Assembly: GCF_044324785.1 (NCBI RefSeq)
Contig: NZ_CP172127.1
Direction: 5' to 3' (one strand)
From: Escherichia coli
Lineage (GTDB): Bacteria > Pseudomonadota > Gammaproteobacteria > Enterobacterales > Enterobacteriaceae
DNA: 64,000 nucleotides
Program-made: the position numbers and the translations under genes
Notes under the pieces: generated by a model
Told to the model about the DNA's origin: nothing
Database searches by the model: none
Seen by the model: the letters and a program-made list of their open reading frames with translations, nothing else
Part shown: positions 11,916 through 50,053 of the stretch, in pieces
How positions within the stretch are numbered: the stretch's first letter is position 1
Layout: each line of letters starts with the position of its first letter

Positions 11916-12179
11916 ATGAAACCGAATATCCATCCTGAATACCGTACTGTGGTGTTCCACGATACCAGTATCGATGAGTACTATAAAATTGGTTCGACCA
12001 TCAAGACTGAACGTGTGATTGAGCTTGATGGTGTCACCTATCCGTACGTAACAATTGATGTTTCCTCTAAGTCGCATCCTTTCTACACTGGCAAACTGAG
12101 AACTGTTGCTTCAGAAGGTAACGTGGCGCGCTTTAACCAGCGTTTCGGTCGTTTTGTTGACACCAAAAAAGGCGCATGA
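11916..12179 (+). CDS. rpmE2: 50S ribosomal protein L31 type B (zinc-independent paralogue)
   Basis: [80 protein letters not shown] is near-identical to YkgM/RpmE2 as recalled; true start at 11916 inside the longer track ORF. Confidence 0.85.
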
Positions 12180-13996: not shown

Positions 13997-14160
13997 ATTA
14001 TCACCTTTTGTCTGACAGTTCATTTGTTGATGCTATCACGATATTCGCGATGCGGTAAATATATCAATATGTTGGTTTATTTGTGTAATACATTATTTCC
14101 CATATGCCATAAATCAGTCTGTTGACGATAGCTTTTTTCTTTTGTTATTCTGTTCCCGCA

Positions 14161-14470
14161 TTAACTGTCGCTTCGGCGACCACCAATGTTCCATGAGGCC
14201 TGTGAGGAACGCCTTCGGGTGGCCCATGTCGCTCCGGCGACCACCAATGTTCCATGTGGCCTGTGAGGAACGCCTTCGGGTGGCCCACGTCGCTCCGGCG
14301 ACCACCAATGCTCCATCTGACCAGTGAGGAGCGCCTTCGGGTGGTCAGTTTTACACCTCCGTAGCCTGAAAGGAGCTGTGCGTGCTGATGGGATATGTTT
14401 CCGGAAGTACGGGTAAATCTGCACACCTTTGCGAGCAGATGTCACCACGGTTTACGTGATGATGAAGGCA
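14161..14470. repeat. composite repeat copy 1: three tandem ~61-bp units (14166-14226, 14227-14287, 14288-14347) plus ~120-bp unique tail
   Basis: Directly visible; about 95 percent identical to copy at 16463-16773; each unit has GTCGC-TCCG-GCGAC hairpin and conserved GAGGAACGCCTTCGGGTGG core. Confidence 0.9.
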
Positions 14471-15074
14471 TTCCGGATTTCGTCCGGTACTTTTACTTTT
14501 TCTCAGCAGACTTTCATAAAAAATGCTTTATGGATCTGCGTCTTAACATATTTTCTGACTTTCCGCATAAGCTTCTTATGACTGTGCGCACGGCATAAGG
14601 CCATTTGAAATTTGGCCGCTTGCGTGTGTACGTGGAGTTTGAAGCAGTGCATGCGTCACTTTTGTCGGCGTTCACGCTGACAAAGTGACGCATGAACGTC
14701 GACTCAACGAACCCGCATAAACAGGCTCTTCACGGGATGTTTTTTAACATTTGAAGAAGTGACCTGACGTGATCGTTTTTTTTCAACTTCATTCTGTTTC
14801 GTAGTGACGTCTCTCCGGTAAAACTTCCGGAAAAACGTCAGTCAACAGAATATCATTGTTTTTTAAGGAGTTTAATGTAGTGAGATGCCGAATCGGCGAT
14901 ATATCTGACAGGCAGATATGTCGGGGGCGACCTTCAGAGGTACAGTTAATTCTGCGGCCGGTTAAACTAACCGGCTTGACACCCCGCAAAACCTGAACAC
15001 TTTGCGTTACCCTGACGCACAGGCACTCACTCACCGAAGGAACGTAACGAAGAACCGTGTCGTCAGGTGAAATG

Positions 15075-15123
15075 CAGATGAATTCTTCTGTTGTGTTCAC
15101 GGCACAACAGAAGAATTCATCTG
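15075..15123. promoter_or_regulatory. perfect 21-bp inverted repeat with 7-bp spacer, 52 bp upstream of recombinase start
   Basis: CAGATGAATTCTTCTGTTGTG - TTCACGG - CACAACAGAAGAATTCATCTG read directly. Confidence 0.5.
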
Positions 15124-15175
15124 TGTTGTGTGCTGCTGTTTTGTTTAGGTCATAGGTCATAAGGAGAATGTACAG

Positions 15176-16081
15176 ATGTCCAGACGTGAGAAATTGCTTA
15201 AAAAGGATCTGGTTGCTCATGTCCGAAAAGAAAAGGGGAGTTTTAAAAAGTTAAGTGACTATACAAGGATTATGCATCGATTCGCTGAAACGCTTGCTCG
15301 TCTGAATGTACAGATTAGTTCTGCTGCACAGTTAAAAGTTCGTCACATTGAATTATATATGAACAGCAGGACGGATGTATCAAAACGAACGAGAGAAAAT
15401 GAAATGTCAGCAATACGCGCGGTTTTACGTCAGGTTGGTAAGAATAAACTTGCCGATCCCAGCCATCCACGGCTGAGTAATAAAGCATTAGGTATTTCAG
15501 GTGAGAGTCGTAAAGGTACGAAAAGTCTGATTACAGACGATCGTTTTCGTGAAATTCTTCAGCGCATTGAACAAAAAGATAAAGGACTCGCTGCAACGGT
15601 TAAATTGTCGCGTTATCTTGGTCTGAGAAATGAGGAGGCCATTCAGTCCGCCAAATCGCTCAAAACATGGAAACAGGCATTAGAACGGGGAGATGAAAAA
15701 TTACGTGTTATTTTTGGTACGAAAGGCGGTCGTGAGAGAATGACCACGATTGTTGACAGAAATAATGTTATTGAGGCTGTTAATTATGCTATTAAATATG
15801 CCGGTGAGCATGACGGGCGATTAATCGACAGAGGTAATCTTAAGTCTGCAATGAATTATTATCTTAACTCATTGCGTCGTTATGGTGAAATGAAAGGCGG
15901 TGATGAGACACCACATAGTTTTCGTTACAGTTATGCCGCAAGTGCAATGAAATACCATATTATGAATGGTTACAGTTATCATGAAGCGCTTGCATTAACA
16001 TCTATGGATCTTGGTCACGGTGACGGCAGAGGACGTTATATCGAGCAGGTATATTGCCAGTTGTTAGGACATGAAGAATAG
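15176..16081 (+). CDS. tyrosine recombinase / phage-integrase-family protein
   Basis: 301 aa; SD AAGGAG; catalytic-type motifs R (LGLRNEE), HxxR (PHSFRYSYA), H...Y (LGHGDGRGRYIEQVY). Confidence 0.65.
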   Translation: MSRREKLLKKDLVAHVRKEKGSFKKLSDYTRIMHRFAETLARLNVQISSAAQLKVRHIELYMNSRTDVSKRTRENEMSAIRAVLRQVGKNKLADPSHPRLSNKALGISGESRKGTKSLITDDRFREILQRIEQKDKGLAATVKLSRYLGLRNEEAIQSAKSLKTWKQALERGDEKLRVIFGTKGGRERMTTIVDRNNVIEAVNYAIKYAGEHDGRLIDRGNLKSAMNYYLNSLRRYGEMKGGDETPHSFRYSYAASAMKYHIMNGYSYHEALALTSMDLGHGDGRGRYIEQVYCQLLGHEE

Positions 16082-16121
16082 CTGTTATTATATTGTAGCC
16101 ATTTTCTTAAAAGGGACCGTT

Positions 16122-16415
16122 ATGAGTGATTATATTTATATGACTATTACTTCTGTTAAAAGTATCACTGACAACTCTCCTTTCTGGTCTTATGATTTAG
16201 GTTATTATCTTTATTCAGGAAAACTTGTGTCTTTTTATTGTGAGGGCATGTCCAACGAATGGGATATGTGTTCTGCTATCGCGGATCATTTTGACGTTGT
16301 CGGAGATTTTTCTTTTGATGTTATTCGTAAGAAAAAAAGAACGCTGATACGTGGGAACTGCGTTTTTCTTTTTGAACAACCCTTTCCGGGAGCGTATAAA
16401 ATACCGCTTTACTGA
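16122..16415 (+). CDS. hypothetical protein co-transcribed with recombinase
   Basis: 97 aa from ATG with SD AAAGGGA; AT-rich. Confidence 0.4.
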   Translation: MSDYIYMTITSVKSITDNSPFWSYDLGYYLYSGKLVSFYCEGMSNEWDMCSAIADHFDVVGDFSFDVIRKKKRTLIRGNCVFLFEQPFPGAYKIPLY

Positions 16416-16462
16416 ATTTTTTTGTTGTTCTTCCACGTAGTTTGTGCTTACAATTTAAACGC

Positions 16463-16773
16463 TAACTTGTCGCTTCGGCGACCACCAATGTTCCATGTGG
16501 CCTGTGAGGAACGCCTTCGGGTGGCCCATGTCGCTCCGGCGACCACCAATGTTCCATGTGGCCTGTGAGGAACGCCTTCGGGTGGCCCACGTCGCTCCGG
16601 CGACCACCAATGCTTCATCTGACCTGTGAGGAGCGCCTTCGGGTGGTCAGTTTTACACCTCCTGAGCCTGAAAGGAGCTGTGCGTACTGAAGGGATATGT
16701 TTCCGGAAGTACGGGCAAATCTGCACACCTTTGAGAGCAGATGTCACTGCGGTTTTCCGTGATGATGAAGGCT
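16463..16773. repeat. composite repeat copy 2 (same orientation as copy 1)
   Basis: Same three-unit tandem structure and tail as 14161-14470. Confidence 0.9.
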
Positions 16774-16901
16774 TTTTTATCACTGTATGACCTGAGTTAT
16801 CTCTGGTCCTTAAGCACATCGTGTTATCGCATTGATGTGTTCACCTGACGGATTTTCCAGTCCGTCAGGGCGGAACGTCCGTCTTTTATCCGGAGGTTCC
16901 A

Positions 16902-17303
16902 ATGTTTATTCCACTTCTGTTTCGCGCAGAGATGCGCCTGACACCTTTCTTTCAGCGACTCAGACAACGTCTGTGTTATCCGGTGAGTCGTGTTCATACA
17001 CAACATCCCTGGTCTTCTCCACAGTTGCGGCACCTTTACTGCACGCCGTGGTTTGTTAACGCCACCGGCAATCTTGCACTCCGTGCCTGCATTGTTTCCA
17101 TTGACGGTTCTTTGCGACACTGCTTTGAGTTCCGTGAAGGCTCTCACAGCCGTGAATACCGTTTCTGGTTTGAGGCGCTTCCTTTGTCGGTACTGCGTTT
17201 TAACACTTTTACCGGTCGAATATCCGATCGCCGTACACTCTCTGCTGCCTCCCGTATGGCCGCGCAGCTTACTTCCTTTCGCTATCGCTTCGGTTTGCGC
17301 TGA
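16902..17303 (+). CDS. hypothetical protein (leading-region-like array)
   Basis: 133 aa, SD GGAGG upstream. Confidence 0.4.
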   Translation: MFIPLLFRAEMRLTPFFQRLRQRLCYPVSRVHTQHPWSSPQLRHLYCTPWFVNATGNLALRACIVSIDGSLRHCFEFREGSHSREYRFWFEALPLSVLRFNTFTGRISDRRTLSAASRMAAQLTSFRYRFGLR

Positions 17304-17455
17304 AGCTGTTTGAGGTCGTTATGACAGTCATTTTCTCTACGAGCAGCGTTGTCTGATCGCGCCATTCAGAACGCGATGACAAAGCTGATTTTTCCTTAAC
17401 CCGTCCGGGACCGCTTCCGTTCGGGGAACGGTCTCTCTGTTTCTGGAGATTGTTT

Positions 17456-17842
17456 ATGGGACTCGATATTTTTTTCCTTGGGCGTGATCGTGTTTGTGTT
17501 ACCGACGCAGTGGTATCGGTACCGGAAACGCGGGAAGTGGGGTACTTTCGCAAGGTTAACCCACTGATTGCCTGGTTTGAGAAGCATTGTGGACCGCTTG
17601 AAAATGCCGTGGAGCGTCCGGTTTCCAGAACGGAACTGGAGGCACTACTGAGCGATCTTGAATGCCTTACGCCGGAGAACTGCCGGGAATTCTTCCCCAC
17701 AACAGAAGGATTCTTTTTTGGCTCTCAGGAGTATGACCAGTATTACTGGAAGGATGTTGAGGACGTGAAGTCGTGGGTCAGAAGCACGCTTGATTCGTTT
17801 GATTTTGAACGAAAAATACTGTTGCTCTGGGCATGGTGGTAA
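17456..17842 (+). CDS. hypothetical protein (leading-region-like array)
   Basis: about 128 aa, SD GGAGA upstream. Confidence 0.4.
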   Translation: MGLDIFFLGRDRVCVTDAVVSVPETREVGYFRKVNPLIAWFEKHCGPLENAVERPVSRTELEALLSDLECLTPENCREFFPTTEGFFFGSQEYDQYYWKDVEDVKSWVRSTLDSFDFERKILLLWAWW

Positions 17843-17928
17843 CTATTTCTCAGTCCTTGTTTTTAACCATGTGATTATTCGCAGAAGCCCGACTTCTCTG
17901 GCCTGCTTTTATTCCGGAGAATGAGATT

Positions 17929-18177
17929 ATGCAAATAAGTGCAGAAACTCGCGCTGTTTTACGTCACTACAGACAGATCATTAACGCCAGACGGCGTGAA
18001 GATGGCATGAAAGCTCTCAGCACGCCGCAAATCGTTGATGAGATCTGTGAGTTTATGCTCAGCCAGCCAGCAGTGTATCTGGGGGGGGCAGTTCATCATG
18101 CAGAAGGCCAGAACAAGATAGCTGTCTTTGTTCATGGCTTTTCAACAGACCGTTATGCTTTCGCCACCACATGGTAA
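17929..18177 (+). CDS. hypothetical small protein
   Basis: 82 aa with SD GGAGAA. Confidence 0.35.
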   Translation: MQISAETRAVLRHYRQIINARRREDGMKALSTPQIVDEICEFMLSQPAVYLGGAVHHAEGQNKIAVFVHGFSTDRYAFATTW

Positions 18178-18261
18178 GGCGGGTCTGATTTTACTGTTAA
18201 CCGTACGGTTCACTCTCATACCGTACGGTGGGAGTGAACCCTTTTCATTAAGGACACTCTC

Positions 18262-18771
18262 ATGAAAACGAAAACTTCTGCACCTGCTGTATATGTTGGT
18301 ACCTGGGCTAAATACAACAATGGCAGCATAGAAGGATGCTGGTTTAATGATTTAACCGTTTTTGAAACTGAAAGCGATTTTTTATCTGCGGCCCGTAAGT
18401 TTCATCAGGATGAAAAAGATCCTGAATTTATGTACCAGGATTATGAAAACTTTCCTTCGGGAATGGCTTCAGAATATGGTTTCAACTGGGCTTATGTTGA
18501 AGGTTATCGTCTTGCCCGTGAAGAAGGCTGTGAAGATGCATGGTATGCATGGGTTTCTAATACCGGTGATACCTGTTTCGAACAGTTCAGGGAGGCGTGG
18601 CTTGGTGGTCCTTATGACAGTGAACTCGAGTTCGCCGCGCAGTACGTGGATGAATGCGGTTTTCTGTCAGAGGTACCTGATACTGTTGCACGCTATTTTG
18701 ATTATGAGGCTTTTGCGCGCGATTTGTTCATGGAACTGGATTTTGTCGACGGACACGTTTTCCATCGGTAA
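18262..18771 (+). CDS. ardA: antirestriction protein ArdA (DNA-mimic inhibitor of type I restriction)
   Basis: 169 aa, very acidic; N-terminal AVYVGTWAKYNNGSIEGCWF and C-terminal YFDYEAFARDL motifs match ArdA family as recalled (e.g. Tn916 Orf18, ColIb ArdA). Confidence 0.8.
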   Translation: MKTKTSAPAVYVGTWAKYNNGSIEGCWFNDLTVFETESDFLSAARKFHQDEKDPEFMYQDYENFPSGMASEYGFNWAYVEGYRLAREEGCEDAWYAWVSNTGDTCFEQFREAWLGGPYDSELEFAAQYVDECGFLSEVPDTVARYFDYEAFARDLFMELDFVDGHVFHR

Positions 18772-18967
18772 CTCACAGCCATGAGGGCGCATATAAGCCG
18801 TGTACTGGCGGATGTGATTTCAGCATACATTCTGCTGGTTTTTTTACCGTTGTTGACAATTTTAATCATCGCGGATGAACAACCTGAACTCTGTTGTTCA
18901 CCGCCCGGAGGCATCGTTCCTTCGGACGGTGTGCTCTTTCATCAGAAAGAATCAGACAGGGGGTTTT

Positions 18968-19327
18968 ATGTATTCGCGTTTTATTACTGGTTACTGGCAT
19001 CTTCAGACGCAGTCCGCTTTGCTGGCACATCTCTGTCAGCTTGAAGGTGAACTGACGATACTTCGCGCCTGGCAACGTCTCGGAATTACCCCGGTGCCGG
19101 AGGATGAAGATGAGCCTTCACCACTTTACTCAATTTTGTGGGATGTTGGTGAGGCTCTGGGCTGGTTGCTGTATGACCTGGAGATGGAAAATGTTCCTGC
19201 ACCGGGAACGATTTTCCACGAGGTATTCGACAGGGTTATATCTCTGGGGTATGAGACTGAGCCCGGTATCTGGGCTGAAAGTATCAGTACCGGAAAGCGC
19301 TACGCTGCAATGCCTGACGAATTTTAA
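18968..19327 (+). CDS. hypothetical protein
   Basis: about 119 aa from ATG with SD AGGGGG; followed by hairpin terminator 19343-19385. Confidence 0.4.
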   Translation: MYSRFITGYWHLQTQSALLAHLCQLEGELTILRAWQRLGITPVPEDEDEPSPLYSILWDVGEALGWLLYDLEMENVPAPGTIFHEVFDRVISLGYETEPGIWAESISTGKRYAAMPDEF

Positions 19328-19394
19328 TGTTTTCCACATTCCCACAGGGACTCATCCCTGTGGGACGGGTCCCGGCTTTTTCAGGAGAAATTTC

Positions 19395-19733
19395 ATGAGA
19401 CCCGATTTGAATACTTTACCCGGAGATTCCGGCTGCAGCGTCTGGTTCTATGACGGAATGTCTCAACCGCGTCTGCTGGCGGGCAGTATTGCCGGGTTAC
19501 TGACGGATGTTACGATCACATCGAATTACCGTGGTGACGTCACATCTGAAATTCATGACGTGGTGCAGGAGTGGCTTGCGACCGGCAGGGGTAACCTGGC
19601 GGATTTAAAGGAAGAACTCTGGTACTACAACCTCTACATAAATCCGTCGGCAGACGAACTTATGAATGCCAACAGGCGGTATGGCCTCGGACATACCACC
19701 AGGCTGAAAGGCTTTATCAATAACGCGGCGTGA
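19395..19733 (+). CDS. hypothetical protein
   Basis: 112 aa with SD AGGAGA. Confidence 0.4.
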   Translation: MRPDLNTLPGDSGCSVWFYDGMSQPRLLAGSIAGLLTDVTITSNYRGDVTSEIHDVVQEWLATGRGNLADLKEELWYYNLYINPSADELMNANRRYGLGHTTRLKGFINNAA

Positions 19734-19808
19734 CACACCGCCATCCCGTGAGGGCTCAGCTCCTCACGGGGCTGTTCCCTCGGTGATTTTCATACAGAGA
19801 GGAGCAGA

Positions 19809-20246
19809 ATGATGAACGTTAAGTCTGTGACTGAGGTTGACGACGCTGTGGTTGCCCGTGTCAGTGAAGTTCTGGAATTCGCATTTCCGGGGCAGAAATT
19901 TGAAGTGCTGAAGGTATGCGATTCCGGCGTTTACAACATGATTAATGTGTACTGGCTGGACGGCCCGACACAGGCTGAAGTGCGGTTTATCACCCGTGCG
20001 TTTGAAGGCAAAAACGGGCTGAGGTTTGTGCACGAATCCCGCGAATTCAGTAATGAATTTGTGCAGGAGTGCATTGACCGGCTTCGCCAGAAGTACGGGC
20101 ATCGCAACGTTCCGCCAGAGGTGACCGTGGAGCGTTACTGGAAAAACGATCTGTGGAAGATTAAAACAGATCGTTTCCCGGGCACTATTGAGGTTGCCAT
20201 CAACGAAATGGGGATGGAAACCAGTAAATACCGGAAGGTTGTATAA
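19809..20246 (+). CDS. hypothetical protein
   Basis: 145 aa with SD GAGAGGAG. Confidence 0.45.
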   Translation: MMNVKSVTEVDDAVVARVSEVLEFAFPGQKFEVLKVCDSGVYNMINVYWLDGPTQAEVRFITRAFEGKNGLRFVHESREFSNEFVQECIDRLRQKYGHRNVPPEVTVERYWKNDLWKIKTDRFPGTIEVAINEMGMETSKYRKVV

Positions 20247-20332
20247 CCGGCTGGACTTTTGACGATGGCGGAATGTGACAATTCCGCTTTTCCCGTGAGG
20301 GCATTGTTCCTCACGGGACAATGCCCTCTTCA

Positions 20333-21331
20333 TTTACCAGAGGAGCATTGATTATGGCTGAATGGTGCAGAAATCGTTTTGAAATCACCGGTAAGTCAGT
20401 CTGTCTTGACGTACTGATTCAGTGGATTGAAGGGAATGATGCCCCCCGGTACCGTCATGCGATCCAGCAGAGCATACTGCTGTTTCTTGCAGGCTGTGCG
20501 GGGATACTGAAACCGGTAAGAACGGTGTCATATCCGCCTTATCCCGGGCTGGTCAGTCACGGTGCCGGCTCAACAACTGTAGCCAGTCAGGCGTTTGAAC
20601 AATGGCTGGGATTACTGACCAGGGATGCCTTCCTTGATCACGAGACGGTGAAGACAATAGATCGTCTTTATCATCAGACAGGGACAGGCGCTATCCGGTG
20701 GAGTAATCTGCCTGATACGGCGAAGGAGATAATCGGTGGTGTGCTTGCACAACAATATGCTGACTGGTTTGGCGTGGCGGATGTGTATGAACGCCCTGAT
20801 AACGCCTTTCTCTGGGAGTCGTTGTTAACATTTGCGGAGTATTCGCAACCCTGTGATATGCTGCAGGTGATGCCAACACGACTGGCCACGGAGCTGAACG
20901 GAAGTGGTGGTTTGCTGAAAGGCACCGGAACGACCCGCAGTTTTTACTGCCGCCAGTTTGGTATGGAGTACCCACTGGGGCAGAATGTCCGGTGGAAACG
21001 AACCGGGCTGAGTACGTTGATACTGGAGTTTGATACCATCTGGTGTCCGCCTTCAGGTGTACTGGTGGGGGAGATTTCGGCAGTGTTTGACTGTGAGGTC
21101 CGTCACTGGTACAGCGAGCCGAAGAACGGAATCAGAGGCTATGACTGTTATGATGGTGGTGAACATACGGACAGCAATATGGAAGCCGAATGGCCACACT
21201 CTGACGATGAGGGGGAGGTCGCGGAGCATGAGCAGCCACAACTCTGTCTGATCAGGGACACGCAGCCAGGTGAACGCGTCATGGCATTAGCATCAGTCGA
21301 GTCCCCGGGGCCAGTAGTAAAAATAGTGTAA
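20333..21331 (+). CDS. hypothetical protein
   Basis: 332 aa with SD AGAGGAG; acidic C-terminus. Confidence 0.45.
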   Translation, partial: FTRGALIMAEWCRNRFEITGKSVCLDVLIQWIEGNDAPRYRHAIQQSILLFLAGCAGILKPVRTVSYPPYPGLVSHGAGSTTVASQAFEQWLGLLTRDAFLDHETVKTIDRLYHQTGTGAIRWSNLPDTAKEIIGGVLAQQYADWFGVADVYERPDNAFLWESLLTFAEYSQPCDMLQVMPTRLATELNGSGGLLKGTGTTRSFYCRQFGMEYPLGQNVRWKRTGLSTLILEFDTIWCPPSGVLVGEISAVFDCEVRHWYSEPKNGIRGYDCYDGGEHTDSNMEAEWPHSDDEGEVAEHEQPQLCLIRDTQPGERVMALASVESPGPVVKIV

Positions 21332-21340
21332 TGAAACAAT

Positions 21341-21366
21341 GCGCCACATTTTGTGGCGCTTTTTTA
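21341..21366. terminator. hairpin terminator between convergent genes
   Basis: GCGCCAC-ATTTT-GTGGCGC then T-run. Confidence 0.5.
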
Positions 21367-21412: not shown

Positions 21413-24328
21413 TTACTGAGTCAGTTTTTTTATCAGGTCGTGAATTTTATCACCTGAAAACTGGGTCATGAAAGTTATCTTTATGGATTTACTGATTTGT
21501 TCGAAGAGTTTCTGTGCATGTTTTATTTTATCGCGTTCTTCATGTCTGAGTTCACGTTTGCCATCAACATTTTTGGTTTCAATAATAAGGTTCAGATAAT
21601 CACCCTTTGACGTGTTTACAACATAAGCGAAGTCAGGGGAGTAAGTGTATCCTCCCGCTACAGGAATTTTTATTGAATTTTTGGGGATCTTTGTGAAGAC
21701 AATGACTGACCTGACCTCACCCTCTGTCATATTGAGTTTTTCAAGTTCTGAATCATAAAATACTTCTTCAAAAAGATAAGAGTCCAGTGGAGGGCTTGTA
21801 TTATCCTGTAAAACGCCAAGATCACTTGACAATACATCAGCAAGATAACCGCCGTCTGCATTGGTGAATTTCGTGGGATGGACAGTTCCTGATATTACAT
21901 TATACCCAAGGCTGAATTTACTGAACGAGTTATTAAGCAAATACTTGCTGAAACCAGATTTAATTTTTCTGATTGTCTGAATGTTAAGGTATTCAGTTAT
22001 ATTTATGATGTCTTTTATATCACAAAAAACCTTATGCATGGTGTCATGTTTGACAAAAATAGTCTGTGATAATTTATCAAGGAATTCACGATAGCTCATT
22101 GTGTTTATTTTGTGAAAATTATCCTCATCAACACTGAGAATGCTTTTCGACATTGCCGTATCATTATGGATATAAATTCTTTCAATACGAGTATGAGCAC
22201 CGGATTTGGTAAATCTGTCTGCTTCTTCCAGCATAAACGCTCTGAAAAGGGATAAAAACTCACGTTCACTTTTTATTTTATACTCAATCACGACCTTTTG
22301 ATTGATCAAGTCCCATAGTTCTTTCAGCTCACTGAACTTACCAACACGCATTTTAGTGCGTCTTTTTCCATCAGAGGCTTTTTTTATTTTGCCTGGTTTC
22401 ACTCCTGCAGGAAATGCTGCCGGATATCTGGCTTTTAAGCGGCTATAGGCATCTGAATCTTTGAAGTTATCATTATCATCAATGATCTCATCACCAAAAA
22501 TTTCATTCAAGAGTGTTCTGGAGGAAAGCTCCGGATATTGAGACAGGATTTTATCCTTAAGCTCCTGAGTAAACTTACCTGGAACAGTCTCTTTGAAAGA
22601 ACTATCGTTGATCTCTTTGACAAGAGAATCGACAAAATCTTTTTCTGTAAAATCAACATAATAGTTGAGGGTAAAATTGCGGTCTTTCACACGACACATG
22701 TATTCATTCACCGGAAGACGTAAACCACGCCCTACTTCCTGAAGTTTAGATGTGGTGCTACCGCTCGAACGGAGCTTACAAATCTGAAAGACATTTGGGT
22801 TATCCCATCCCTCACGCAACGTCCATTTAGAGAAAATGAAACGGCGAGGATTTTCTAAAGACAATAGAAGCTCTTTATCATGAAGGATTTCGTTGATTTC
22901 CTGCTCAATTTTATCATCTTTATCACTATTATCTTTTGAAAAATAACCACCATGAACAGAAGATATATCCTTAACAGTTTTTTCAAGGTAGTTTCTGTAA
23001 AACTCATCTTTTTCTGTTTTTAACAGTTCATTTGCTTCTGCCAAAACGTATTCTTCGAACTTAGTTTTCAGGCTTCCTGCAATATCATTACCATCACGAT
23101 AGCCTTCAATGTCATCAATGAAGAAAAGAGTAAGAGGTTTTATGCGTGGCCTTTGTGTCAGATACTCTTTTTCTAACTTAAAGTGTTCTTTGACAGCTTT
23201 ACGTATCATGTTATCAGCAAGTGTCTGATCGTAAGAATAGGGGTTTATCGAACTACCAATTTTTAGCTCAATACCATTACTCAACACTGCTGTATTCTTA
23301 TTTAAAGCATCAAGAGTTAAATCATGGATCGCACTATGCGTCTTAGATAGTGATTCACCTTTGGCTAACTTAAAAATTTTTTTATTATTATTTTCGTTCA
23401 GTTCAAATGTAGCTTCTTTTCCGTCAGATTTGACCAACTTGAGGTTGGCATTACCATCACCAACTATATCCTCAATGTATGCATCAATACCTTTAACAAG
23501 ATCTTCATTGAAGGCATCTACGGCTGTAAGACGATAAACTAAGTTCTTATAGCCTTCACTAAAGGTTGCACCATAGCGGATGATATATTGGGCATTAAAT
23601 TTTTGAATATGTTCCCATGTCTTTTTACCAGTAGGAAATTTATGAGGCTCATCAATGATAATGAATGGTTTTATCGCACTAAGTGCAGAAAATGGGGTAT
23701 CAAACTGATTATTAAGCAAGCCAACATCATAAGTGTCAGTTAAAGACTTAGAGTTAATCATCCCTGAATTGATCACAAGAATGTGTATATATTTCTTATT
23801 GAAATTACTTGCTTCAACAAAATCATGGATAGCTTGAGGTATATACGATTTTGTATTTTTACCCGAACGTTTCTGACTTTCAACAACGTAAGTCTTTAGT
23901 TCACGCTCGTAATCATCTCGAAAGTGTTCTTTTATAGCATCGCTTTTTAAAAAGTTAACGGTTCCGGCTTTGATCGATAGGGTAGGAACAATGATGATAA
24001 ACTTGTTAATACCAAATGATTTGTTCAGGTCAAAAATTGTTTTGGTGTAAGTATAAGTTTTACCTGTACCTGTCTCCATAGAAACATCAATTACGTTGCT
24101 TTTAGCATCGTAATTATCTTTTGAGTGCTCAATACCATTGAACTCCTGAACATTTTTTATGTTGTTGTAGTATTGTTGTTCAGATAGATTCAGTTCTGGA
24201 TTAGCTAACAGGCGAATTGCAACATGATCCGTCTGATGAGGTATGGCGGATACAAAGACATTCATTACCGAATCAACGCCAGCCTTTTGATGAGGTAAAT
24301 TTTTTTCGAATGTGAACCCTTTAGACAT
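21413..24328 (-). CDS. res: Type III restriction endonuclease, Res subunit
   Basis: 971 aa; helicase motifs METGTGKTYT and IIIDEPH; C-terminal PD-(D/E)xK-like region; size typical of EcoP15I-like Res; AT-rich. Confidence 0.85.
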   Translation of the reverse strand: MSKGFTFEKNLPHQKAGVDSVMNVFVSAIPHQTDHVAIRLLANPELNLSEQQYYNNIKNVQEFNGIEHSKDNYDAKSNVIDVSMETGTGKTYTYTKTIFDLNKSFGINKFIIIVPTLSIKAGTVNFLKSDAIKEHFRDDYERELKTYVVESQKRSGKNTKSYIPQAIHDFVEASNFNKKYIHILVINSGMINSKSLTDTYDVGLLNNQFDTPFSALSAIKPFIIIDEPHKFPTGKKTWEHIQKFNAQYIIRYGATFSEGYKNLVYRLTAVDAFNEDLVKGIDAYIEDIVGDGNANLKLVKSDGKEATFELNENNNKKIFKLAKGESLSKTHSAIHDLTLDALNKNTAVLSNGIELKIGSSINPYSYDQTLADNMIRKAVKEHFKLEKEYLTQRPRIKPLTLFFIDDIEGYRDGNDIAGSLKTKFEEYVLAEANELLKTEKDEFYRNYLEKTVKDISSVHGGYFSKDNSDKDDKIEQEINEILHDKELLLSLENPRRFIFSKWTLREGWDNPNVFQICKLRSSGSTTSKLQEVGRGLRLPVNEYMCRVKDRNFTLNYYVDFTEKDFVDSLVKEINDSSFKETVPGKFTQELKDKILSQYPELSSRTLLNEIFGDEIIDDNDNFKDSDAYSRLKARYPAAFPAGVKPGKIKKASDGKRRTKMRVGKFSELKELWDLINQKVVIEYKIKSEREFLSLFRAFMLEEADRFTKSGAHTRIERIYIHNDTAMSKSILSVDEDNFHKINTMSYREFLDKLSQTIFVKHDTMHKVFCDIKDIINITEYLNIQTIRKIKSGFSKYLLNNSFSKFSLGYNVISGTVHPTKFTNADGGYLADVLSSDLGVLQDNTSPPLDSYLFEEVFYDSELEKLNMTEGEVRSVIVFTKIPKNSIKIPVAGGYTYSPDFAYVVNTSKGDYLNLIIETKNVDGKRELRHEERDKIKHAQKLFEQISKSIKITFMTQFSGDKIHDLIKKLTQ

Positions 24329-24330
24329 GA

Positions 24331-26367
24331 TTAGTTCCTTACCACCAAATCTAAATCAATAGATTTTTTATTAGCATAACTTTTTAGTGCTTCATTGAGT
24401 TCCATCTGTTTCGCACTTTCGAAGTTGCTGCCATAAAATACAACTTTGTTAGGGGCAAAGTCTTTGTCTGCATCCAGCTTTTGAAGTAAAGCTTTCAAAG
24501 CCTCACTTGTGAAATTAGGCGCAATTAGATATAGCCGACCATCGCACAAGTGTGCTTTGTAGCCATTAAGGTCAATATCTTCAATTGGTGTTGTTAGCAA
24601 GCTGCCATCATACACGCACCATGTCGTCAATAGAGTGTCATACTGCTCTGGTGTCAATACAGCATCGTCAAAGAAACTAAGATTAGAAAGCGTAAGTTCA
24701 GACTCATCTTTCACTCGAAAATCATGAACTGTTTCAAATATTTTAAATCCCAAATCTCCATTATAATTAGGATTATCTTTTTTCAGCTTTTTTCCTGCCT
24801 TAATAATTCTGTCTTTTGTTATATTGAAGATGGATTTATACCCTTCTTTATAGGCTTGTTTCTTTTTATCTGTTTCTTCATCTAATTGAACACAGATGAA
24901 GTTTCTTTTCCTGCCGTCTTCAATATTTAACTCCAGAATACCATGAGCTGTAGTTCCAGAGCCAGCAAAAAAGTCAAGATAAATGTCTTTATCTTCGGTT
25001 TTTACTGAACCAAATAGTGTTTTTATTAAACTTGTTGGCTTCGGGTAGGAGAAATATCCTTTCCCACCAAAAAGATTTTCAACCTCAACACCACCATCAC
25101 TTTTAGTTGAAATAATTGATCTTAGTAAAAACTCTTCAACTTCATCTAAAAATTTAACCGAACTGGGTTGGGTGTTTTCTGTACTGGCAAACCAAATTCC
25201 ACCACAAATAACGCTACCATCATGTAGTTTTTTGATATCTGCATACTTTCCATCTATTCTTTTTGCAATATGATTAAAAGTGCCTTCTTTCCAACGCCAG
25301 CCTCTGTCTGGGATTTTGACAGGGTTATTAGTCAAAGGGTGCAATACTTCATACGTGGGTCCAAATGAATCTGCATTAGGCCAGCTCATATTAATTTTAC
25401 CCCATGGCCTATAATCTTCGTTCAAACAGTTGTAAAGAGTAATTCCACGATCATATCCGTTGGAGCTGTAGAATTTTTTGAGTTGCTGCTCTGCTTTATC
25501 TAATGGCACCTTCTCCTTTTTTAACTTTTCAATAAACTGATATACATCATCAATACCATCTTTCCGCATTAAAAATTCTTTACTTATTTCGTTATTCTTC
25601 GCATAAGCAAGGATGTACTCATGGATATTACCAATACCCTTATCATTTTTAGGGATACGTTTATTCCATACAATATTTTCTATGAAATTTGCTTCGCCAA
25701 AAATTTCATCACAAATAGTTTTAAGTTGATTTAATTCATTTTCGTCAATCGAAATAAATATCACACCATCTTCACGTAGAAGCTCACGAGCAATATATAA
25801 ACGAGGATAAATGAACGTTAACCATGCGCTATGGCTGCTTGAACCATTCGTGGTAAATTCAAGTATACGTTTAGCCTCATCAAGATCGATACCTGCCAGA
25901 TCAGAAAGCTGTTCAGGTGTAAACTTGCGATCATCGTTATAGGCGAATCCATCCTTACCTGTATTGTATGGTGGATCAATGTAAATCATCTTCACCTTTT
26001 CAGAGTAAGCATTAACCATATGCTTCAATACTTCGAGGTTATCCCCTTTGATTAACAGATTCTGACTGTTTTTGTTCTCTTCACGTTGGTTATGGTCTTT
26101 ATCTTCGGAGAGTAATGTCTTCGGCGGCAAGTTAGCTAACAGACGGGCATAGGATTTACCAAGCCAGTTCAGGCTGTATGATTCTTTGGAGAGTTCAACA
26201 TCCGATGATTTGACGATTTCAAGCAATTTTTCCTGAATGAACGCTCCATTTTTATCAAAACACTGTGGAAAGTTAGCCTTTAAAATCGCAAGCTGTTTAC
26301 TGTTTGTGGTTTCAGTTTCAGAGAAAAGAGTTTCTTTTTTCAGTTGAAATTGGGGTTGTGTATTCAT
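24331..26367 (-). CDS. mod: Type III DNA methyltransferase, Mod subunit (N6-adenine, beta-class)
   Basis: 678 aa; motif IV IYIDPPYN precedes motif I FFAGSGTT; own SD GGAGG 6 nt before ATG; immediately upstream of res. Confidence 0.85.
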   Translation of the reverse strand: MNTQPQFQLKKETLFSETETTNSKQLAILKANFPQCFDKNGAFIQEKLLEIVKSSDVELSKESYSLNWLGKSYARLLANLPPKTLLSEDKDHNQREENKNSQNLLIKGDNLEVLKHMVNAYSEKVKMIYIDPPYNTGKDGFAYNDDRKFTPEQLSDLAGIDLDEAKRILEFTTNGSSSHSAWLTFIYPRLYIARELLREDGVIFISIDENELNQLKTICDEIFGEANFIENIVWNKRIPKNDKGIGNIHEYILAYAKNNEISKEFLMRKDGIDDVYQFIEKLKKEKVPLDKAEQQLKKFYSSNGYDRGITLYNCLNEDYRPWGKINMSWPNADSFGPTYEVLHPLTNNPVKIPDRGWRWKEGTFNHIAKRIDGKYADIKKLHDGSVICGGIWFASTENTQPSSVKFLDEVEEFLLRSIISTKSDGGVEVENLFGGKGYFSYPKPTSLIKTLFGSVKTEDKDIYLDFFAGSGTTAHGILELNIEDGRKRNFICVQLDEETDKKKQAYKEGYKSIFNITKDRIIKAGKKLKKDNPNYNGDLGFKIFETVHDFRVKDESELTLSNLSFFDDAVLTPEQYDTLLTTWCVYDGSLLTTPIEDIDLNGYKAHLCDGRLYLIAPNFTSEALKALLQKLDADKDFAPNKVVFYGSNFESAKQMELNEALKSYANKKSIDLDLVVRN

Positions 26368-27872: not shown

Positions 27873-28012
27873 TTGTGGCATTTCTTGAACACTTTTTCGA
27901 GACAGGTTCAACCGCAGGCATTCAGGCCAAACATGCGGTTAAACTACGTATTCAATTAACTGCCCTAAATATGGCTAAGCGCCCGGACGATATGTCTGTC
28001 TGCACCTAGGTG

Positions 28013-28142
28013 GAAATTACACCCTCTAAAGGGAGCTGATCTTAGAGGTCATTGGGAAATATCAGTAAACTCTAACTGGCGAATTACCTTTCGATTTGAA
28101 GGCGAAGACGCAATTCTGGTTGACTATCAGGATTATCATTGA
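28013..28142 (+). pseudogene. higB/RelE-like toxin, C-terminal fragment only
   Basis: KGADLRGHWEISVNSNWRITFRFEGEDAILVDYQDYH matches HigB C-terminal consensus; N-terminus absent (in-frame stop upstream). Confidence 0.5.
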
Positions 28143-28204
28143 GGGATAACTGAACCGCCCCGGGAATCCTGGAGACTAAACTCCCTGATAAAGAGGTAAA
28201 CAGA

Positions 28205-28546
28205 ATGACTAAAAATACTCGTTTTTCCCCCGAAGTCCGTCAGAGGGCGATTCGTATGGTTCTGGAAAGTCAGGGCGAATATGACTCACAGTGGGCGGCA
28301 ATTTGTTCCATTGCCCCAAAGATTGGCTGTACACCGGAGACTCTGCGTGTCTGGGTACGCCAGCATGAGCGGGATACCGGAGGCGGTGATGGCGGGCTCA
28401 CCACCGCTGAACGTCAGCGTCTGAAAGAGCTGGAACGTGAAAATCGTGAACTGCGCCGCATCGTCTATGGAAACGACATTCGTGCTGGATGCTCTGGAGC
28501 AGGCGTTATGGGCCCGTCGACCGTCCGGCACAGTCCATCACAGTGA
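28205..28546 (+). pseudogene. IS629-like transposase OrfA, 3'-disrupted
   Basis: [85 protein letters not shown] then divergent tail. Confidence 0.6.
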
Positions 28547-28853
28547 TAAAGGTTCTCAGTATGTATCGCTGGCCTACACACAGCGGCTTAAGGAAGCCGG
28601 ATTACTGGCATCAACAGGAAGTACTGGTGACTCGTATGACAACGCGATGGCGGAGAGCATCAATGGCCTTTACAAAGCGGAGGTAATACACCGTAAGAGC
28701 TGGAAAAACCGGACAGAAGTGGAGCTGGCCACACTCACGTGGGTGGACTGGTATAACAATCGACGATTGCTGGAAAGGCTGGGCCATATCCCACCGGCAG
28801 AAGCAGAAAAAGCTTATTATGCTTCCATCGGAAACGATGATCTGGCAGCCTGA
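28437..28853 (+). pseudogene. IS629-like transposase OrfB, C-terminal part only
   Basis: [49 protein letters not shown]... DDE-domain C-terminus. Confidence 0.6.
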
Positions 28854-28899
28854 GTTCACAGATAAAACACTCTCCAGGAAACCCGGGGCGGTTCAAACT

Positions 28900-45494: not shown

Positions 45495-47003
45495 ATGTCC
45501 CTGAATCCCACCGATGAACAGTCAGCCATCATTCACTGGCAGGGGGAAAAACTGGTGGTGAATGCCTTTGCCGGTACAGGCAAAACCAGCACACTGGTGC
45601 AGTTCGCCGCAGCCTGCCCTGAGAGCCGGATGCTGTATCTGGCCTATAACCGCGCGATTCGTGATGAGGCGGAGCGCCGGTTTCCCTTTAATGTGGAGTG
45701 CAAAACCTCCCATCAGCTGGCGTATTCGCGGTTCGGAAAGCATTTCCGGCATCGTCTGGTGCCGGGGCTGTCAGTGACGGATGTAGCGAGAAAACTGAAC
45801 ACCCGCTACTGGACGCTTGCCCGTGTTGCCATGACCGCGCTGAATCAGTTCATCTGTTCGGCGGACGTGGCGCCCGGAATGCAGCATATGCCGCCTCCCG
45901 ACGAGATGAAGGGCATGTCGCCACAGGATGCGCTGCGTGCCGTGCAGATCCTCTGGCATGAAATGAGCAATCCGGATGGCAATTTTCCGGTCACTCACGA
46001 CACCTATCTGAAGCTCTATCAGCTTTCCTCACCGGATCTGTCACGCAGGTGGGATACGATCCTTTTTGATGAGGCCCAGGATGCGAATCCGGTGACGTCC
46101 GCACTGGTGCTGGGGCAGCGGTGCAGGGTGGTACTGGTTGGCGACCGTTACCAGCAGATTTATCGTTTTCGTGGTGCCAGCAATGCACTGTCGCATCCGG
46201 CACTGAACGGGGCGGACCGTCTCTGGCTGACGCAAAGTTTTCGTTTTGGTCCTGCCGTGGCCGGGGTGGCCAGCCAGTTACTGAAGCGTGCCGGCGAGAG
46301 CCGTGAGGTGACCGGCAGGGGCGGGGATGATGAAGTGCTGACGGCAGGTGAAATGCGTGCGCGCGTGAAGGCAGGGAAGATGACCGGTCACAGGGCGATA
46401 CTGAGCCGGACGGTGGCCGGTGTGATTGGCACCGCACTGATGGCGGCAATGCGTGGCAGGAAGGTTTACTGGGTGGGGGGCATTGAAGGCTACAGAACGG
46501 AGGCACTGGAAGATCTTTACTGGTTTCAGATGGATATGCCGGAGCGGATGCACAGTGACAGACTGCGGAAGGACTACCGGGGTTTTGACGAGTACCGTCA
46601 TATTGCGAAGGTGACGAAGGATGTGGAAATGAATCAGTCCATTCGTCTGCTGGAGCTGTGCTTTCCGCTGCCGAAGAAACTCGAACTTCTCAGAAAGCAC
46701 ACCGTCACGAATGAACAGGAGGCGGATATCACGGTCTCAACGGCACACCGCAGTAAGGGACTGGAGTGGTCACTGGTGGTACTCGATGATGATTTTCAGG
46801 ATATCACCGACCCGCTGATAAGCGAGCAGGAGCGGCGGGATGAAACCAATCTGCTCTATGTGGCGGTCACCCGGGCGCGCAGAACGCTGGTTCTCAATGA
46901 ACTCATGCAGCAGCTGACGGAAGCTGCCGGCGATGGTGGTGCACCCGGAAACGCGCCGGTGCAGGGGAAGGAAGACGATGGTGTGGAGGGAGAGGATGTT
47001 TAA
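45495..47003 (+). CDS. UvrD/PcrA-like superfamily I DNA helicase
   Basis: 502 aa; Walker A FAGTGKT, Walker B ILFDEAQD; SD GGAGGA. Confidence 0.75.
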   Translation: MSLNPTDEQSAIIHWQGEKLVVNAFAGTGKTSTLVQFAAACPESRMLYLAYNRAIRDEAERRFPFNVECKTSHQLAYSRFGKHFRHRLVPGLSVTDVARKLNTRYWTLARVAMTALNQFICSADVAPGMQHMPPPDEMKGMSPQDALRAVQILWHEMSNPDGNFPVTHDTYLKLYQLSSPDLSRRWDTILFDEAQDANPVTSALVLGQRCRVVLVGDRYQQIYRFRGASNALSHPALNGADRLWLTQSFRFGPAVAGVASQLLKRAGESREVTGRGGDDEVLTAGEMRARVKAGKMTGHRAILSRTVAGVIGTALMAAMRGRKVYWVGGIEGYRTEALEDLYWFQMDMPERMHSDRLRKDYRGFDEYRHIAKVTKDVEMNQSIRLLELCFPLPKKLELLRKHTVTNEQEADITVSTAHRSKGLEWSLVVLDDDFQDITDPLISEQERRDETNLLYVAVTRARRTLVLNELMQQLTEAAGDGGAPGNAPVQGKEDDGVEGEDV

Positions 47004-48525
47004 GCGGTTCAGACGTATGCTGCCCGGCACAAAGGGCACGGAGCCTGGCGTGGTCGCGCCGGTGATACCGGCAGGGTTTTATGCGCCGCTCACGGCAGAG
47101 GCACTGTTATCACCAGAGCACAGGGAGCTGAGGCTCAGGCAGGTCTGGGATAACAATCCGATGCCCCGTGATGTATACGACAGGATGTGCCTTGAACCAC
47201 TCAGCCGGCTGCTGCTGAACACCCAGAACGTCCCGGCAACACGGGAAGGACGGTGGTCCCGTGCCGGTGGATTTGGTGATCTGACGGTACTGTACACCAC
47301 GTATGCCGTTCGTCTGGCAAGAGGGTACATGTTTCCACCGGATGCGACCCCGGAAGACCAGGCGGCTCAGGCCGCAGTCTGGCATGCGGTGATTTTCTGG
47401 TCAGCGCTGTTTTACCACCTGCCCCTGCTGGCGCACCTTGAGGGGGAACTGCTGAGTGGGCGGGGCTGGCAGCCAGGAATTTCTGTGCCTGACGAACCTT
47501 TCCGTTTCCGGTTCAGGAAGACGGCGCCGCAGGGTACGGAAGCGCAACAACTTGCGGCCCTGACTGCCGGCACGCTGTTACCGGACGGCGCAACGGCCTG
47601 GCTTGTGACGGCGCCGGGCGCACTGCAGAATCTGGCCGGGGCGCTCTGGCATCAGCATCCCGGGATGGCGCTGATTCGTGATGTGCTGCAGGAAGCGGCA
47701 AGGCAGACAGAGAGTCCGCTGAATACCTGCGCTGTCACTGCGCCGGTTACTGCGGAGGCTTCAGCAGACATTCGTCCTGCTGACCCGGTGGTGACCGGCA
47801 GCACGGACAGTGTGGTGGCAGTCACTGAGGTGCAGCCGGCAGAGGAGGTGAAGACTGAGAGCGTGCAGACAGAGACTGAAGGTGGTGGTGAGTCCGCCGG
47901 GGCGTCAGAGGTGCCGTCCGCACAGCAGGAACTGACGGTTCAGACAGCGCCAGTGGTGACGGCAGATGATGAAGCGGTCAGTGCTGCTCCTGCGGATCAG
48001 GACACAGCAATGCTGCTGAGTCTTTTTTCAGCAGATGAGTCCGAAACTGCTGAACCTGAAAACAGTATTAAATCGTCAGCCGATCGGGACGGCCAAAGTG
48101 ACGTACCGGCAGTACAGGGAGAACAAACCAGCGTTATTTATCCGGAGGGCGAAGCAGATACGGAAGAGGTGGATTTTATTACTTGGCTGAAATCGGGGTT
48201 GTCATCGGGGATGATTGAAATAAATACACCTTCCGCGAGAGTGCATTGTATTGCGGGGTATGTTTTTTTGTGTGTCCCGGATATTTTTTATCTGTATCAG
48301 AAAATGACGGGAAGCCGTCGTGACCGCAGGAGTGTTCAGGCGTTGTTTGAACGTTCCCGTATTCACAAAATCCGGGAAGGTGAGCGTTTTTTCAGCCTGC
48401 ATCTGTATAGTGTACCTGACAGAACAGGGAGTTATAAAGCTGTAAGCGGATATCTGGTTAAAAGCCGTTATCTGTGTGGTTATAACGCAGTGCCCGGGGA
48501 CAGTGAATACATTGCTTTTCCATAA
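46996..48525 (+). CDS. hypothetical protein with acidic low-complexity linker (helicase-associated)
   Basis: about 509 aa from ATG at 46996 with SD; overlaps helicase stop by 8 nt. Confidence 0.45.
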   Translation: MFKRFRRMLPGTKGTEPGVVAPVIPAGFYAPLTAEALLSPEHRELRLRQVWDNNPMPRDVYDRMCLEPLSRLLLNTQNVPATREGRWSRAGGFGDLTVLYTTYAVRLARGYMFPPDATPEDQAAQAAVWHAVIFWSALFYHLPLLAHLEGELLSGRGWQPGISVPDEPFRFRFRKTAPQGTEAQQLAALTAGTLLPDGATAWLVTAPGALQNLAGALWHQHPGMALIRDVLQEAARQTESPLNTCAVTAPVTAEASADIRPADPVVTGSTDSVVAVTEVQPAEEVKTESVQTETEGGGESAGASEVPSAQQELTVQTAPVVTADDEAVSAAPADQDTAMLLSLFSADESETAEPENSIKSSADRDGQSDVPAVQGEQTSVIYPEGEADTEEVDFITWLKSGLSSGMIEINTPSARVHCIAGYVFLCVPDIFYLYQKMTGSRRDRRSVQALFERSRIHKIREGERFFSLHLYSVPDRTGSYKAVSGYLVKSRYLCGYNAVPGDSEYIAFP

Positions 48526-49872: not shown

Positions 49873-49948
49873 TGGTGCCCGGAGGCGGAATCGAACCACC
49901 GACACGGGGATTTTCAATCCCCTGCTCTACCGACTGAGCTATCCGGGC
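49873..49948 (-). tRNA. pheV: tRNA-Phe (anticodon GAA), variant T-stem
   Basis: 76 nt ending CCA; matches E. coli tRNA-Phe as recalled except T-stem GGTGG/CCGCC instead of CTTGG/CCGAG (compensatory). Confidence 0.9.
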
Positions 49949-50053
49949 AACGGGGCGCATTAAACCTGATTCGCCTCGTCTCGTCAATCAAATTTCTTCA
50001 ATTTAGTGCAGACTGCACAATCTATCATCACTTTGCCGCTATTGCACACATTG

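Follow-up and report, generated by a model that had tools for sequence, protein, structure and literature searches.

The window analyzed here, a 64,000-nucleotide stretch of Escherichia coli DNA (contig NZ_CP172127.1, assembly GCF_044324785.1), contains at positions 16824–21331 an array of small genes, among them ardA, that is part of an integrative conjugative element (ICE) and probably helps this element to establish itself in new hosts. The interval matches the avian pathogenic E. coli (APEC) strain E19035 with 100% identity on its chromosome (NZ_CP126926.1), whose NCBI annotation was used here after conversion to window coordinates, and it is covered to 97–100% in 35 of 5426 complete E. 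coli genomes, almost always on the chromosome. Eight genes on the + strand are annotated between 16902 and 21331, and direct reading finds a purine-rich Shine-Dalgarno (SD) sequence 5–12 nt ahead of every start codon. A preliminary description of this DNA, made from the letters alone, had proposed eight co-directional small genes, each preceded by an SD. This set stands, except that one member is a frameshifted pseudogene and that the last gene starts at 20354 instead of 20321, because the N-terminus MAEWC is invariant among the homologs of its product. Open reading frames (ORFs) on the − strand of the interval, for example 16824–17147 and 19764–20333, are not annotated by NCBI.

The ardA gene (18262–18771, +), already called clear in that description, is confirmed by sequence matches of its product to Pfam PF07275 (E = 1.9e-24, 147 of 155 model positions), to PHROG 2059 “anti-restriction protein” (E = 3e-26), and to 2W82, the structure of the Tn916 ORF18 ArdA (E = 1.8e-8). 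The protein of 169 aa is strongly acidic (isoelectric point, pI, 4.2; net charge −21; 33 Asp + Glu versus 12 Lys + Arg). ArdA proteins block type I restriction enzymes through DNA mimicry, and the ArdA of the array presumably inhibits type I restriction-modification enzymes as well. The last gene of the array (20354–21331, +) encodes a DUF1281/Api92-like protein (Pfam DUF1281, 1e-64; DUF1281_C, 6e-13) that matches PDB 2IJR, the solved but uncharacterized “hypothetical protein api92” of a Yersinia island, with E = 2e-106. It is preceded by the gene of an LPD29-domain protein (19809–20246, +; Pfam PF18847, 8e-6, and the same name from NCBI), for which sequence search returned no solved relative.

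The other products are small proteins. Gene 1 (16902–17303, +) encodes a basic protein of 133 aa (pI 11.4); the possibility that it is non-coding was rejected, because its C-terminal 85 aa are conserved at the protein level in four distant loci (L005, L010, L012, and L014 in our numbering). Gene 2 (17456–17842, +) encodes an acidic protein of 128 aa (net charge −9) that matches phrog_7971 at 1e-24 and has 907 homologs, none of them with a Pfam domain. The pseudogene is gene 3 (17929–18121, open frame to 18177, +), flagged “frameshifted” by NCBI, of which strain 64.1 holds an intact counterpart of 63 aa. Gene 5 (18968–19327, +) specifies an acidic helical protein of 119 aa (net charge −13) from a narrow family of 17 homologs, and gene 6 (19395–19733, +) a protein of 112 aa (net charge −4) with matches to phrog_10958 (7e-11) and phrog_32750 (2e-8), both families with no assigned function. 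Genes 2, 5, and 6 thus have acidic products. Structure prediction, recommended in the preliminary description, yielded confident AlphaFold2 models for the products of gene 2 (predicted local distance difference test, pLDDT, 90.7) and gene 5 (83.5, a helical bundle), neither of which had a significant match in the PDB; the best was YfbM (E = 0.16), and the DNA mimic DMP12 (E = 1.3) was not counted. NCBIfam and PADLOC had no match for any array protein, and PHROGs offered only families with no assigned function apart from that of ArdA. These searches assign no anti-defense role to the small partner proteins, for which one had been considered, and such a role would be a guess based on their neighborhood. 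The array closes with a bidirectional intrinsic terminator at 21341–21359 (GCGCCACATTTTGTGGCGC followed by a T-run on both strands), which faces a convergent type III restriction gene.

Directly upstream of the array lies a block of non-coding motifs around a gene that NCBI annotates as “integrase domain-containing protein.” By homology and catalytic residues, this gene (15176–16081, +; 301 aa) is a putative relaxase gene of the tyrosine-recombinase-like MOB_M type. Its product contains the Pfam domains Integrase_1 (5e-56) and Phage_int_SAM_2 (2.5e-23) and is 53% identical (E = 2e-112) to WP_033567157.1 of SGI-4, which was named as a MOB_M relaxase and used as query in a 2026 preprint; residues R151, K183, H247, R250, H281, and Y288/Y293 are invariant in nine homologs. 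According to the same preprint, MOB_M relaxases have been overlooked; they look like tyrosine recombinases and often carry the annotation “integrase.” The preprint links them to MPF_G ICEs and places their origin of transfer (oriT) in the stretch from the secretion operon to the relaxase gene. A small ORF after the relaxase gene (16122–16415, +) is annotated as hypothetical and has a homolog of 48% identity at the same place in L005.

The relaxase gene is flanked by two clusters of the STAXI motif (RF01728), a name that refers to the neighbors Ssb, Topoisomerase, Antirestriction, and XerDC Integrase (Weinberg 2010; Rfam). The first cluster (14166–14461, +) comprises two matches of 68.6 and 61.9 bits, the second (16468–16773, +), which directly precedes the array, two of 68.6 and 66.3 bits, and all four pass the Rfam gathering score of 40.5. 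A sigma70-like TTGACG-18-TATTCT at 14122–14151 lies just 5′ of the first cluster. Together with a second pair of sigma70-like hexamers at 16425–16454, these sequences end 6–15 nt ahead of the respective cluster, and STAXI may therefore form the 5′ end of a transcript. In the UUCG- or UCCG-capped STAXI hairpins, G·U pairs outnumber A·C pairs 10 to 1 on the + strand.

Locating oriT, another check suggested at the outset, has led to a candidate region at 14500–15066. This region (L007 9001–9565) shares 87% identity with non-coding DNA in the urease/tellurite (ure/ter, TAI) island of E. coli O157:H7. TAI islands were classed as oriT-only hitchers whose oriT is of the MOB_M type and related to the SGI-4 oriT (2026 preprint), and it is because the stretch is common to such a relaxase-less island that we take it as the candidate oriT. 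The TAI island corresponds to OI-43/48, and similar stretches occur in ~600 other genomes; its copy, without a relaxase gene, adjoins a STAXI copy, a type B L31 gene, and a hok gene. The candidate region contains a second motif, EFASI (RF02957), at 14878–15031. The match in the window (46.3 bits) remains below the gathering score of 51.2, but EFASI is found at the same position in 16 related loci with 52–91 bits. A perfect inverted repeat with a 21-bp stem (15075–15123), 52 nt ahead of the relaxase gene, was considered as a core oriT feature and dropped for lack of conservation in the family: L005 retains it with compensatory changes, L014 has a different 14-bp repeat, and the other loci have none. 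A conserved non-coding block upstream of uvrD-traI, sought as a possible second oriT, was not found; in MOBH systems oriT is often distant from traI. The succession of STAXI, EFASI, “integrase,” and STAXI (window 14166–16773, and for example L026 2051–4675 and L008 8148–10087), with the end of EFASI ~110 nt ahead of the “integrase” gene, is thus, judged from sequence comparison, a predicted MOB_M mobilization module, and the preprint that defined MOB_M oriTs names neither STAXI nor EFASI. The array starts 0.8 kb past the putative relaxase gene and ~1.8 kb from the candidate oriT region.

Comparison with related loci supports this linkage. We compared 16 loci from other Enterobacterales genomes, collected through the DUF1281 protein; three relatives from E. 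coli, an MPF_G plasmid of Pantoea, and SGI-4 in its circular form completed the set. In 15 of the 19 loci with enough flank, the MOB_M-type gene shares the strand of DUF1281 and lies 2.2–6.2 kb upstream of it, and the order STAXI, EFASI, MOB_M-type gene, STAXI, array is kept in all 16 loci that hold this gene, including SGI-4. The slot between the MOB_M-type gene and DUF1281 is variable. It is usually filled by small proteins of no known function followed by ArdC (ArdcN and zincin domains), which is found ahead of DUF1281 in 15/16 loci. DUF1281 is followed by a small orphan N6-methylase in 14/16 loci, sometimes with DUF5983 between them, and uvrD-traI comes directly after the array in nine. 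In the window, the slot contains ArdA, two small genes, and LPD29 in place of ArdC, and the gap between DUF1281 and uvrD-traI is filled by a type III restriction-modification system, debris of insertion sequences (IS), and a pilus operon.

The chromosomal island recognized in the preliminary description is a ~78 kb ICE of the SPI-7/SGI-4/ICEclc type, of which the window holds the part from position 1 to ~49.9 kb. It encodes an MPF_G secretion system (TIGR037xx-type secretion genes), TraD, a protein with a TraG N-terminal domain, and uvrD-traI, and further backbone genes are parA, dnaB-PI, parB, topB, and ssb (NCBI annotation). The integrase gene adjoins tRNA-Phe (49873–49948), the MOBH traI at 46933–48525 is a second relaxase gene of the element, and a type IVb pilus operon with a shufflon is also present. 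With type IV secretion system, TraD, TraI, integrase, and type IVb pilus, the gene set of this ICE is complete-looking.

The content of the array links it to the leading regions of conjugative plasmids. Among the top 100 leading-region gene families, ArdA ranks as family 15 and “Uncharacterized; DUF1281” (YubB/YccB/YfdA) as family 27, the latter with 1949 members, a false discovery rate p of 0, and a median ORF position of 22 from oriT; both are enriched in leading regions in the T-strand orientation (Samuel et al., 2024, PMC11541004). Homologs of the DUF1281 protein (31–33% identity) occur on at least 5000 plasmids, 3919 of them conjugative among the matches listed. On one IncF plasmid, the order is sopAB, DUF1281, a small gene, and a DNA methylase, with an antirestriction gene, ssb, DUF905, and ParB further on, so that the triplet of DUF1281, small gene, and methylase is common to an IncF leading region and the relatives of our ICE. 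Families of anti-defense type, ArdA and DUF1281 in the window and ArdC and the methylase in its relatives, share one strand. Gene content, synteny, and the place beside the candidate oriT support the term “leading-region-like establishment module.” The preliminary description had derived a leading-region organization in part from short GC-rich hairpins between the genes; these hairpins are not a defining mark of leading regions, and it is the content, the IncF synteny, and the proximity to the candidate oriT that support the comparison.

The hairpins themselves are real features of the spacers. Folding compared with dinucleotide shuffles gave z-scores of −4.0 for spacer 18178–18261, −3.1 for 19328–19394, −4.4 for 19734–19808, and −5.6 for 20247–20353, in agreement with the four hairpins previously listed. 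Spacer 18772–18967 is intermediate (−2.5), and 17304–17455 (about −1.5) and 17843–17928 (−1.3 to −1.6) are weakly structured. The 14–22 kb section contains 29 terminator-like sites versus 8.2 ± 3.2 in shuffles. Among 103 array spacers from 17 loci, the median z is −4.0 and 83% are below −2 (random window segments: −0.11 and 3%); 40% of the spacers are terminator-like.

One of these elements is the conserved leader of DUF1281 (20292–20353, +), for which the 60 nt ahead of the gene are conserved in 21/21 loci. A hairpin (20292–20300/20309–20317) overlaps a longer stem (20297–20310/20315–20328), whose 3′ arm can also pair with the SD (20339–20350); since the gene starts at 20354, hairpin 20292–20331 is wholly intergenic. 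The 5′ inverted repeat is invariant across the loci, which suggests that the leader RNA has a specific partner, and its exact form, CCGTGAGG-N8-CCTCACGG, occurs only ahead of DUF1281 and, in the E. coli group, ahead of LPD29. RNAalifold does not select this hairpin but the overlapping 14-bp stem GAGGGCAUUGUUCC / GGGACAGUGCCCUC, in which 95.9% of the cells are paired and three pairs show compensatory changes; none of 500 shuffles reached its covariation score. In most relatives a run of seven to eight U follows this stem. When the leader is folded up to the U-run, the terminator stem (−26.0 kcal/mol) prevails over the 5′ hairpin (−19.3 kcal/mol), and the whole leader folds into the 5′ hairpin plus a helix of the 3′ arm of the stem with the SD (−29.5 to −34.3 kcal/mol). 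In an IncF plasmid, pERL03-1416-1 (L027 8860–9030), a long hairpin of −59 kcal/mol lies ahead of the F-type DUF1281 gene. Its 5′ UUCCUCCUCC pairs with the ribosome-binding site, and the sequence differs from the ICE leader while the masking idea is alike.

Two further spacers fold into two states like the DUF1281 leader. Ahead of ardA (18200–18261, +), a hairpin at 18200–18229 competes with a terminator-like stem at 18207–18240 that has a CUUUUC tail; the nascent RNA favors the terminator-like stem (−20.9 kcal/mol), the full leader the 5′ hairpin and an SD-masking helix (−29.9 kcal/mol). Ahead of LPD29 (19745–19808, +) lies a second copy of the DUF1281-type leader with the exact repeat at 19746–19769, which scores 59.2 bits (E = 1e-11) with a covariance model of the leader and is likewise bistable. 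The gene 6 spacer (19340–19382, +) is a plain hairpin with an 11-bp stem, followed by a small stem with a U-run. This model assigns 77–92 bits to DUF1281 copies and 56–59 bits to LPD29 copies. It also picks up about two dozen weaker matches on the + strand whose ends coincide with gene starts within the arrays, one of them after the third STAXI cluster of the ICE (see below). An Rfam scan found no family that matches the array spacers, DUF1281 leader included, and the exact leader hairpin was not found in the viral contigs of IMG/VR. On this comparative evidence, the spacers appear to be conserved RNA elements so far uncatalogued, among them the leader ahead of DUF1281 genes.

Taken together, the interval is probably the variable anti-restriction and establishment operon of the ~78 kb SPI-7/SGI-4-type (MPF_G) ICE at tRNA-Phe. 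The operon would begin directly after the mobilization block and end at the bidirectional terminator, and its genes are probably on one transcript that starts at or before the STAXI leader. ArdA would block type I restriction enzymes, as expected from its family. In one state, the spacer RNA would form the 5′ hairpin and a helix that covers the ribosome-binding site of the following gene; the other state would be the terminator-like stem, and these switches would set the reach of transcription and the amount of each protein. Most likely, the ICE makes use of the module just after entry into a new host, a timing and entry order that we infer. An establishment program had been postulated before. 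ArdA and DUF1281, and ArdC and the methylase in the slot of the relatives, are in line with such a program. The hairpins seem to act as terminator, anti-terminator, and SD-masking elements of the RNA.

Several points weigh against this interpretation. The array is on the relaxase-gene side of the candidate oriT, whereas in F-like plasmids the leading region is on the side opposite to the relaxase gene. Tyrosine-recombinase-like relaxases may link to a DNA 3′ end. The MOBH traI is 24 kb from the array, behind the type III restriction-modification system and the pilus operon. The array of the window lacks the methylase usual in the relatives and includes a pseudogene, and profile and structure searches assign no function to five of its eight products. 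At the RNA level, the SD is paired in the minimum-energy fold of 58/67 array spacers and likewise in 8/12 of a small control, a high value that makes SD masking a weak point outside the DUF1281 leader. The tail of the DUF1281 stem in the window is UUCAUUUACC; because the U-run is degenerate in this E. coli version, real termination at its stem is doubtful.

Alternatively, the array might be a variable hotspot of accessory genes, expressed while the element is resident, that maybe shields the element or its host from resident or incoming restriction systems, with no special link to early entry; its place beside the relaxase gene would then merely be one where insertions are tolerated. The highly variable content between the relaxase gene and DUF1281 agrees with this possibility, as do the cargo genes that directly follow, which are type III restriction-modification in the window, sil/pco in SGI-4, and fimbriae in L005, and the location on the relaxase side of the candidate oriT, far from traI. 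Yet the conservation of the flanking genes and of the leader elements extends across genera, the slot contains almost solely anti-restriction types (ArdA, ArdC, orphan methylase) instead of random cargo, and DUF1281 and ArdA are statistically tied to plasmid leading regions. We therefore regard a purely resident role as rather unlikely, although it survives best among the alternatives.

An assignment of the array to the processing of transfer DNA is distinctly improbable. Here, a single unit would comprise the ArdC-like single-strand-DNA binders, DUF1281, the methylase, the UvrD helicase, and TraI, and ArdA would be a late replacement. The array does run straight into uvrD-traI in plasmid relatives, two relaxase-type genes bracket the module, and DUF1281 has a ferredoxin-like C-terminal domain; but ArdA and ArdC are established anti-restriction families, an orphan methylase fits the shielding of incoming DNA, and F-type plasmids have DUF1281 at the sopAB end of their leading region, far from the tra genes.

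That the hairpins are single-strand-DNA promoters or priming sites (Frpo/ssi-like), active on the transferred strand as in the leading regions of F and ColIb-P9, is very improbable: they do precede anti-restriction genes in a leading-region-like array, and Frpo-like elements were reported ahead of such genes (Samuel et al., 2024, PMC11541004), but their GC-rich stems of 9–14 bp are too short for −35 and −10 hexamers 17 bp apart, a + strand scan for sigma70-like hexamer pairs found none in any array spacer, the U·G pairs of the conserved 14-bp stem on the coding strand become A·C mismatches on the opposite, template strand, the U-run and the SD-pairing segment after the stem are features of RNA, and the leader model scores 81.5 bits on the + strand versus 20.4 bits on the − strand. 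Frpo/ssi promoters were accordingly not recognized in the spacers by hexamer pairs and stem length, a search that did not include the published Frpo sequences. The spacers look like RNA attenuators and translational masks rather than single-strand-DNA promoters.

A more far-reaching extension of the establishment operon would unite the spacers, the leader with its invariant CCCGUGAGG...CCUCACGGG, terminator, and anti-SD segment, and the motifs STAXI and EFASI in one control circuit of MOB_M-type ICEs and plasmids. STAXI might be a 5′ leader that drives polymerase through the intergenic terminators, by analogy to the put RNA of phage HK022, the anti-restriction genes might be expressed as a burst after entry, only from the STAXI promoter, and EFASI might be the DNA oriT of the MOB_M relaxase and not a small RNA. 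This circuit is unlikely and is offered as speculation.

Outside the array, the ICE contains other features of interest. The genes of a 971-aa type III restriction endonuclease and of its methyltransferase (21413–26367, −; 35.5% GC) follow directly after the array in convergent orientation; no action of ArdA on type III enzymes is to be expected. At ~27940–29270 (L001 31119–32442), between the restriction system and traF, lies a zone of cargo in decay, with RelE/ParE toxin and HigA antitoxin pseudogenes that carry frameshifts, fragments of IS, and the remnant of an autotransporter. A type B (zinc-independent) paralog of ribosomal protein L31 is encoded inside the ICE at ~11916–12179 (L001 15093–15356), and the TAI island holds its type B L31 gene at the corresponding place. 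The third STAXI cluster (L002 14189–14495) is found on the gene strand outside the window, ~13 kb upstream of its first position. On one side of it is topB, closed by a strong terminator, and on the other are the STY4534, ssb, and rpn genes; SSB and Rpn nucleases are leading-region families, too (Samuel et al., 2024, PMC11541004). The coordinates of the window and of NZ_CP126926.1 drift by 85 nt within 21.3–45.5 kb (tRNA-Phe is at 49873, expected at 49958), for which the shufflon region is a possible cause.

That ICEs carry anti-defense genes near oriT has already been stated (2026 preprint), and relative to this work and to Samuel et al. (2024) the operon in the window is a further example of a known arrangement. 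It places an ArdA-type establishment module beside the newly recognized MOB_M relaxase/oriT block of an ICE family widespread in Enterobacterales and therefore supports the presence of anti-defense genes near the transfer origin in ICEs, as in plasmids. In addition, the orphan Rfam motifs STAXI and EFASI gain a concrete genetic context, an uncatalogued conserved RNA leader is indicated ahead of DUF1281 genes, and the small acidic proteins of the slot become reasonable candidates for anti-defense screens.

Compared with known systems, the array resembles the plasmid leading regions of Samuel et al. (2024) in its co-directional small genes with ArdA and DUF1281, a likeness to which the ArdC and orphan methylase of the relatives add. 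Unlike these regions, it belongs to an ICE, where it occupies the relaxase side of the candidate oriT, and it contains no ssb, psiB, or hok/sok; the ssb gene of the ICE is ~30 kb away behind another STAXI cluster. Orf18 of Tn916 is likewise an ArdA carried by an ICE, but Tn916 is a Gram-positive element with a MOB_T relaxase, and the similarity does not exceed the match to 2W82 given above. In Tn916, oriT and the relaxase gene orf20 are followed a few genes downstream by ardA, which offers a precedent for the succession of oriT, relaxase gene, and ardA. The leaders share with known attenuators the mutually exclusive hairpins and a 3′ arm that pairs with the SD, corresponding to alternative terminator and anti-terminator hairpins and SD sequestration, but differ in that they show no evident leader peptide or ligand pocket and no known binding protein.

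For STAXI and EFASI, the Ssb, topoisomerase, antirestriction, and integrase genes of the motif names all occur beside STAXI copies in this ICE, where the “integrase” is the MOB_M-type relaxase gene and the array starts after STAXI. A further likeness is to SGI-4 of Salmonella 4,[5],12:i:- and to the MPF_G ICEs SPI-7, ICEEc2, and PAPI-1, with which the element shares the backbone and the local order of STAXI, EFASI, MOB_M-type gene, STAXI, array, and DUF1281; integration at tRNA-Phe and uvrD-traI beside the integrase gene are further traits in common with the SGI-4/SPI-7 family. The two elements differ in the fill of the slot, with ArdC and the methylase in SGI-4 versus ArdA, two small genes, and LPD29 in the window, and in their cargo, which is sil/pco in SGI-4 and the type III restriction-modification system with the pilus in the element described here.

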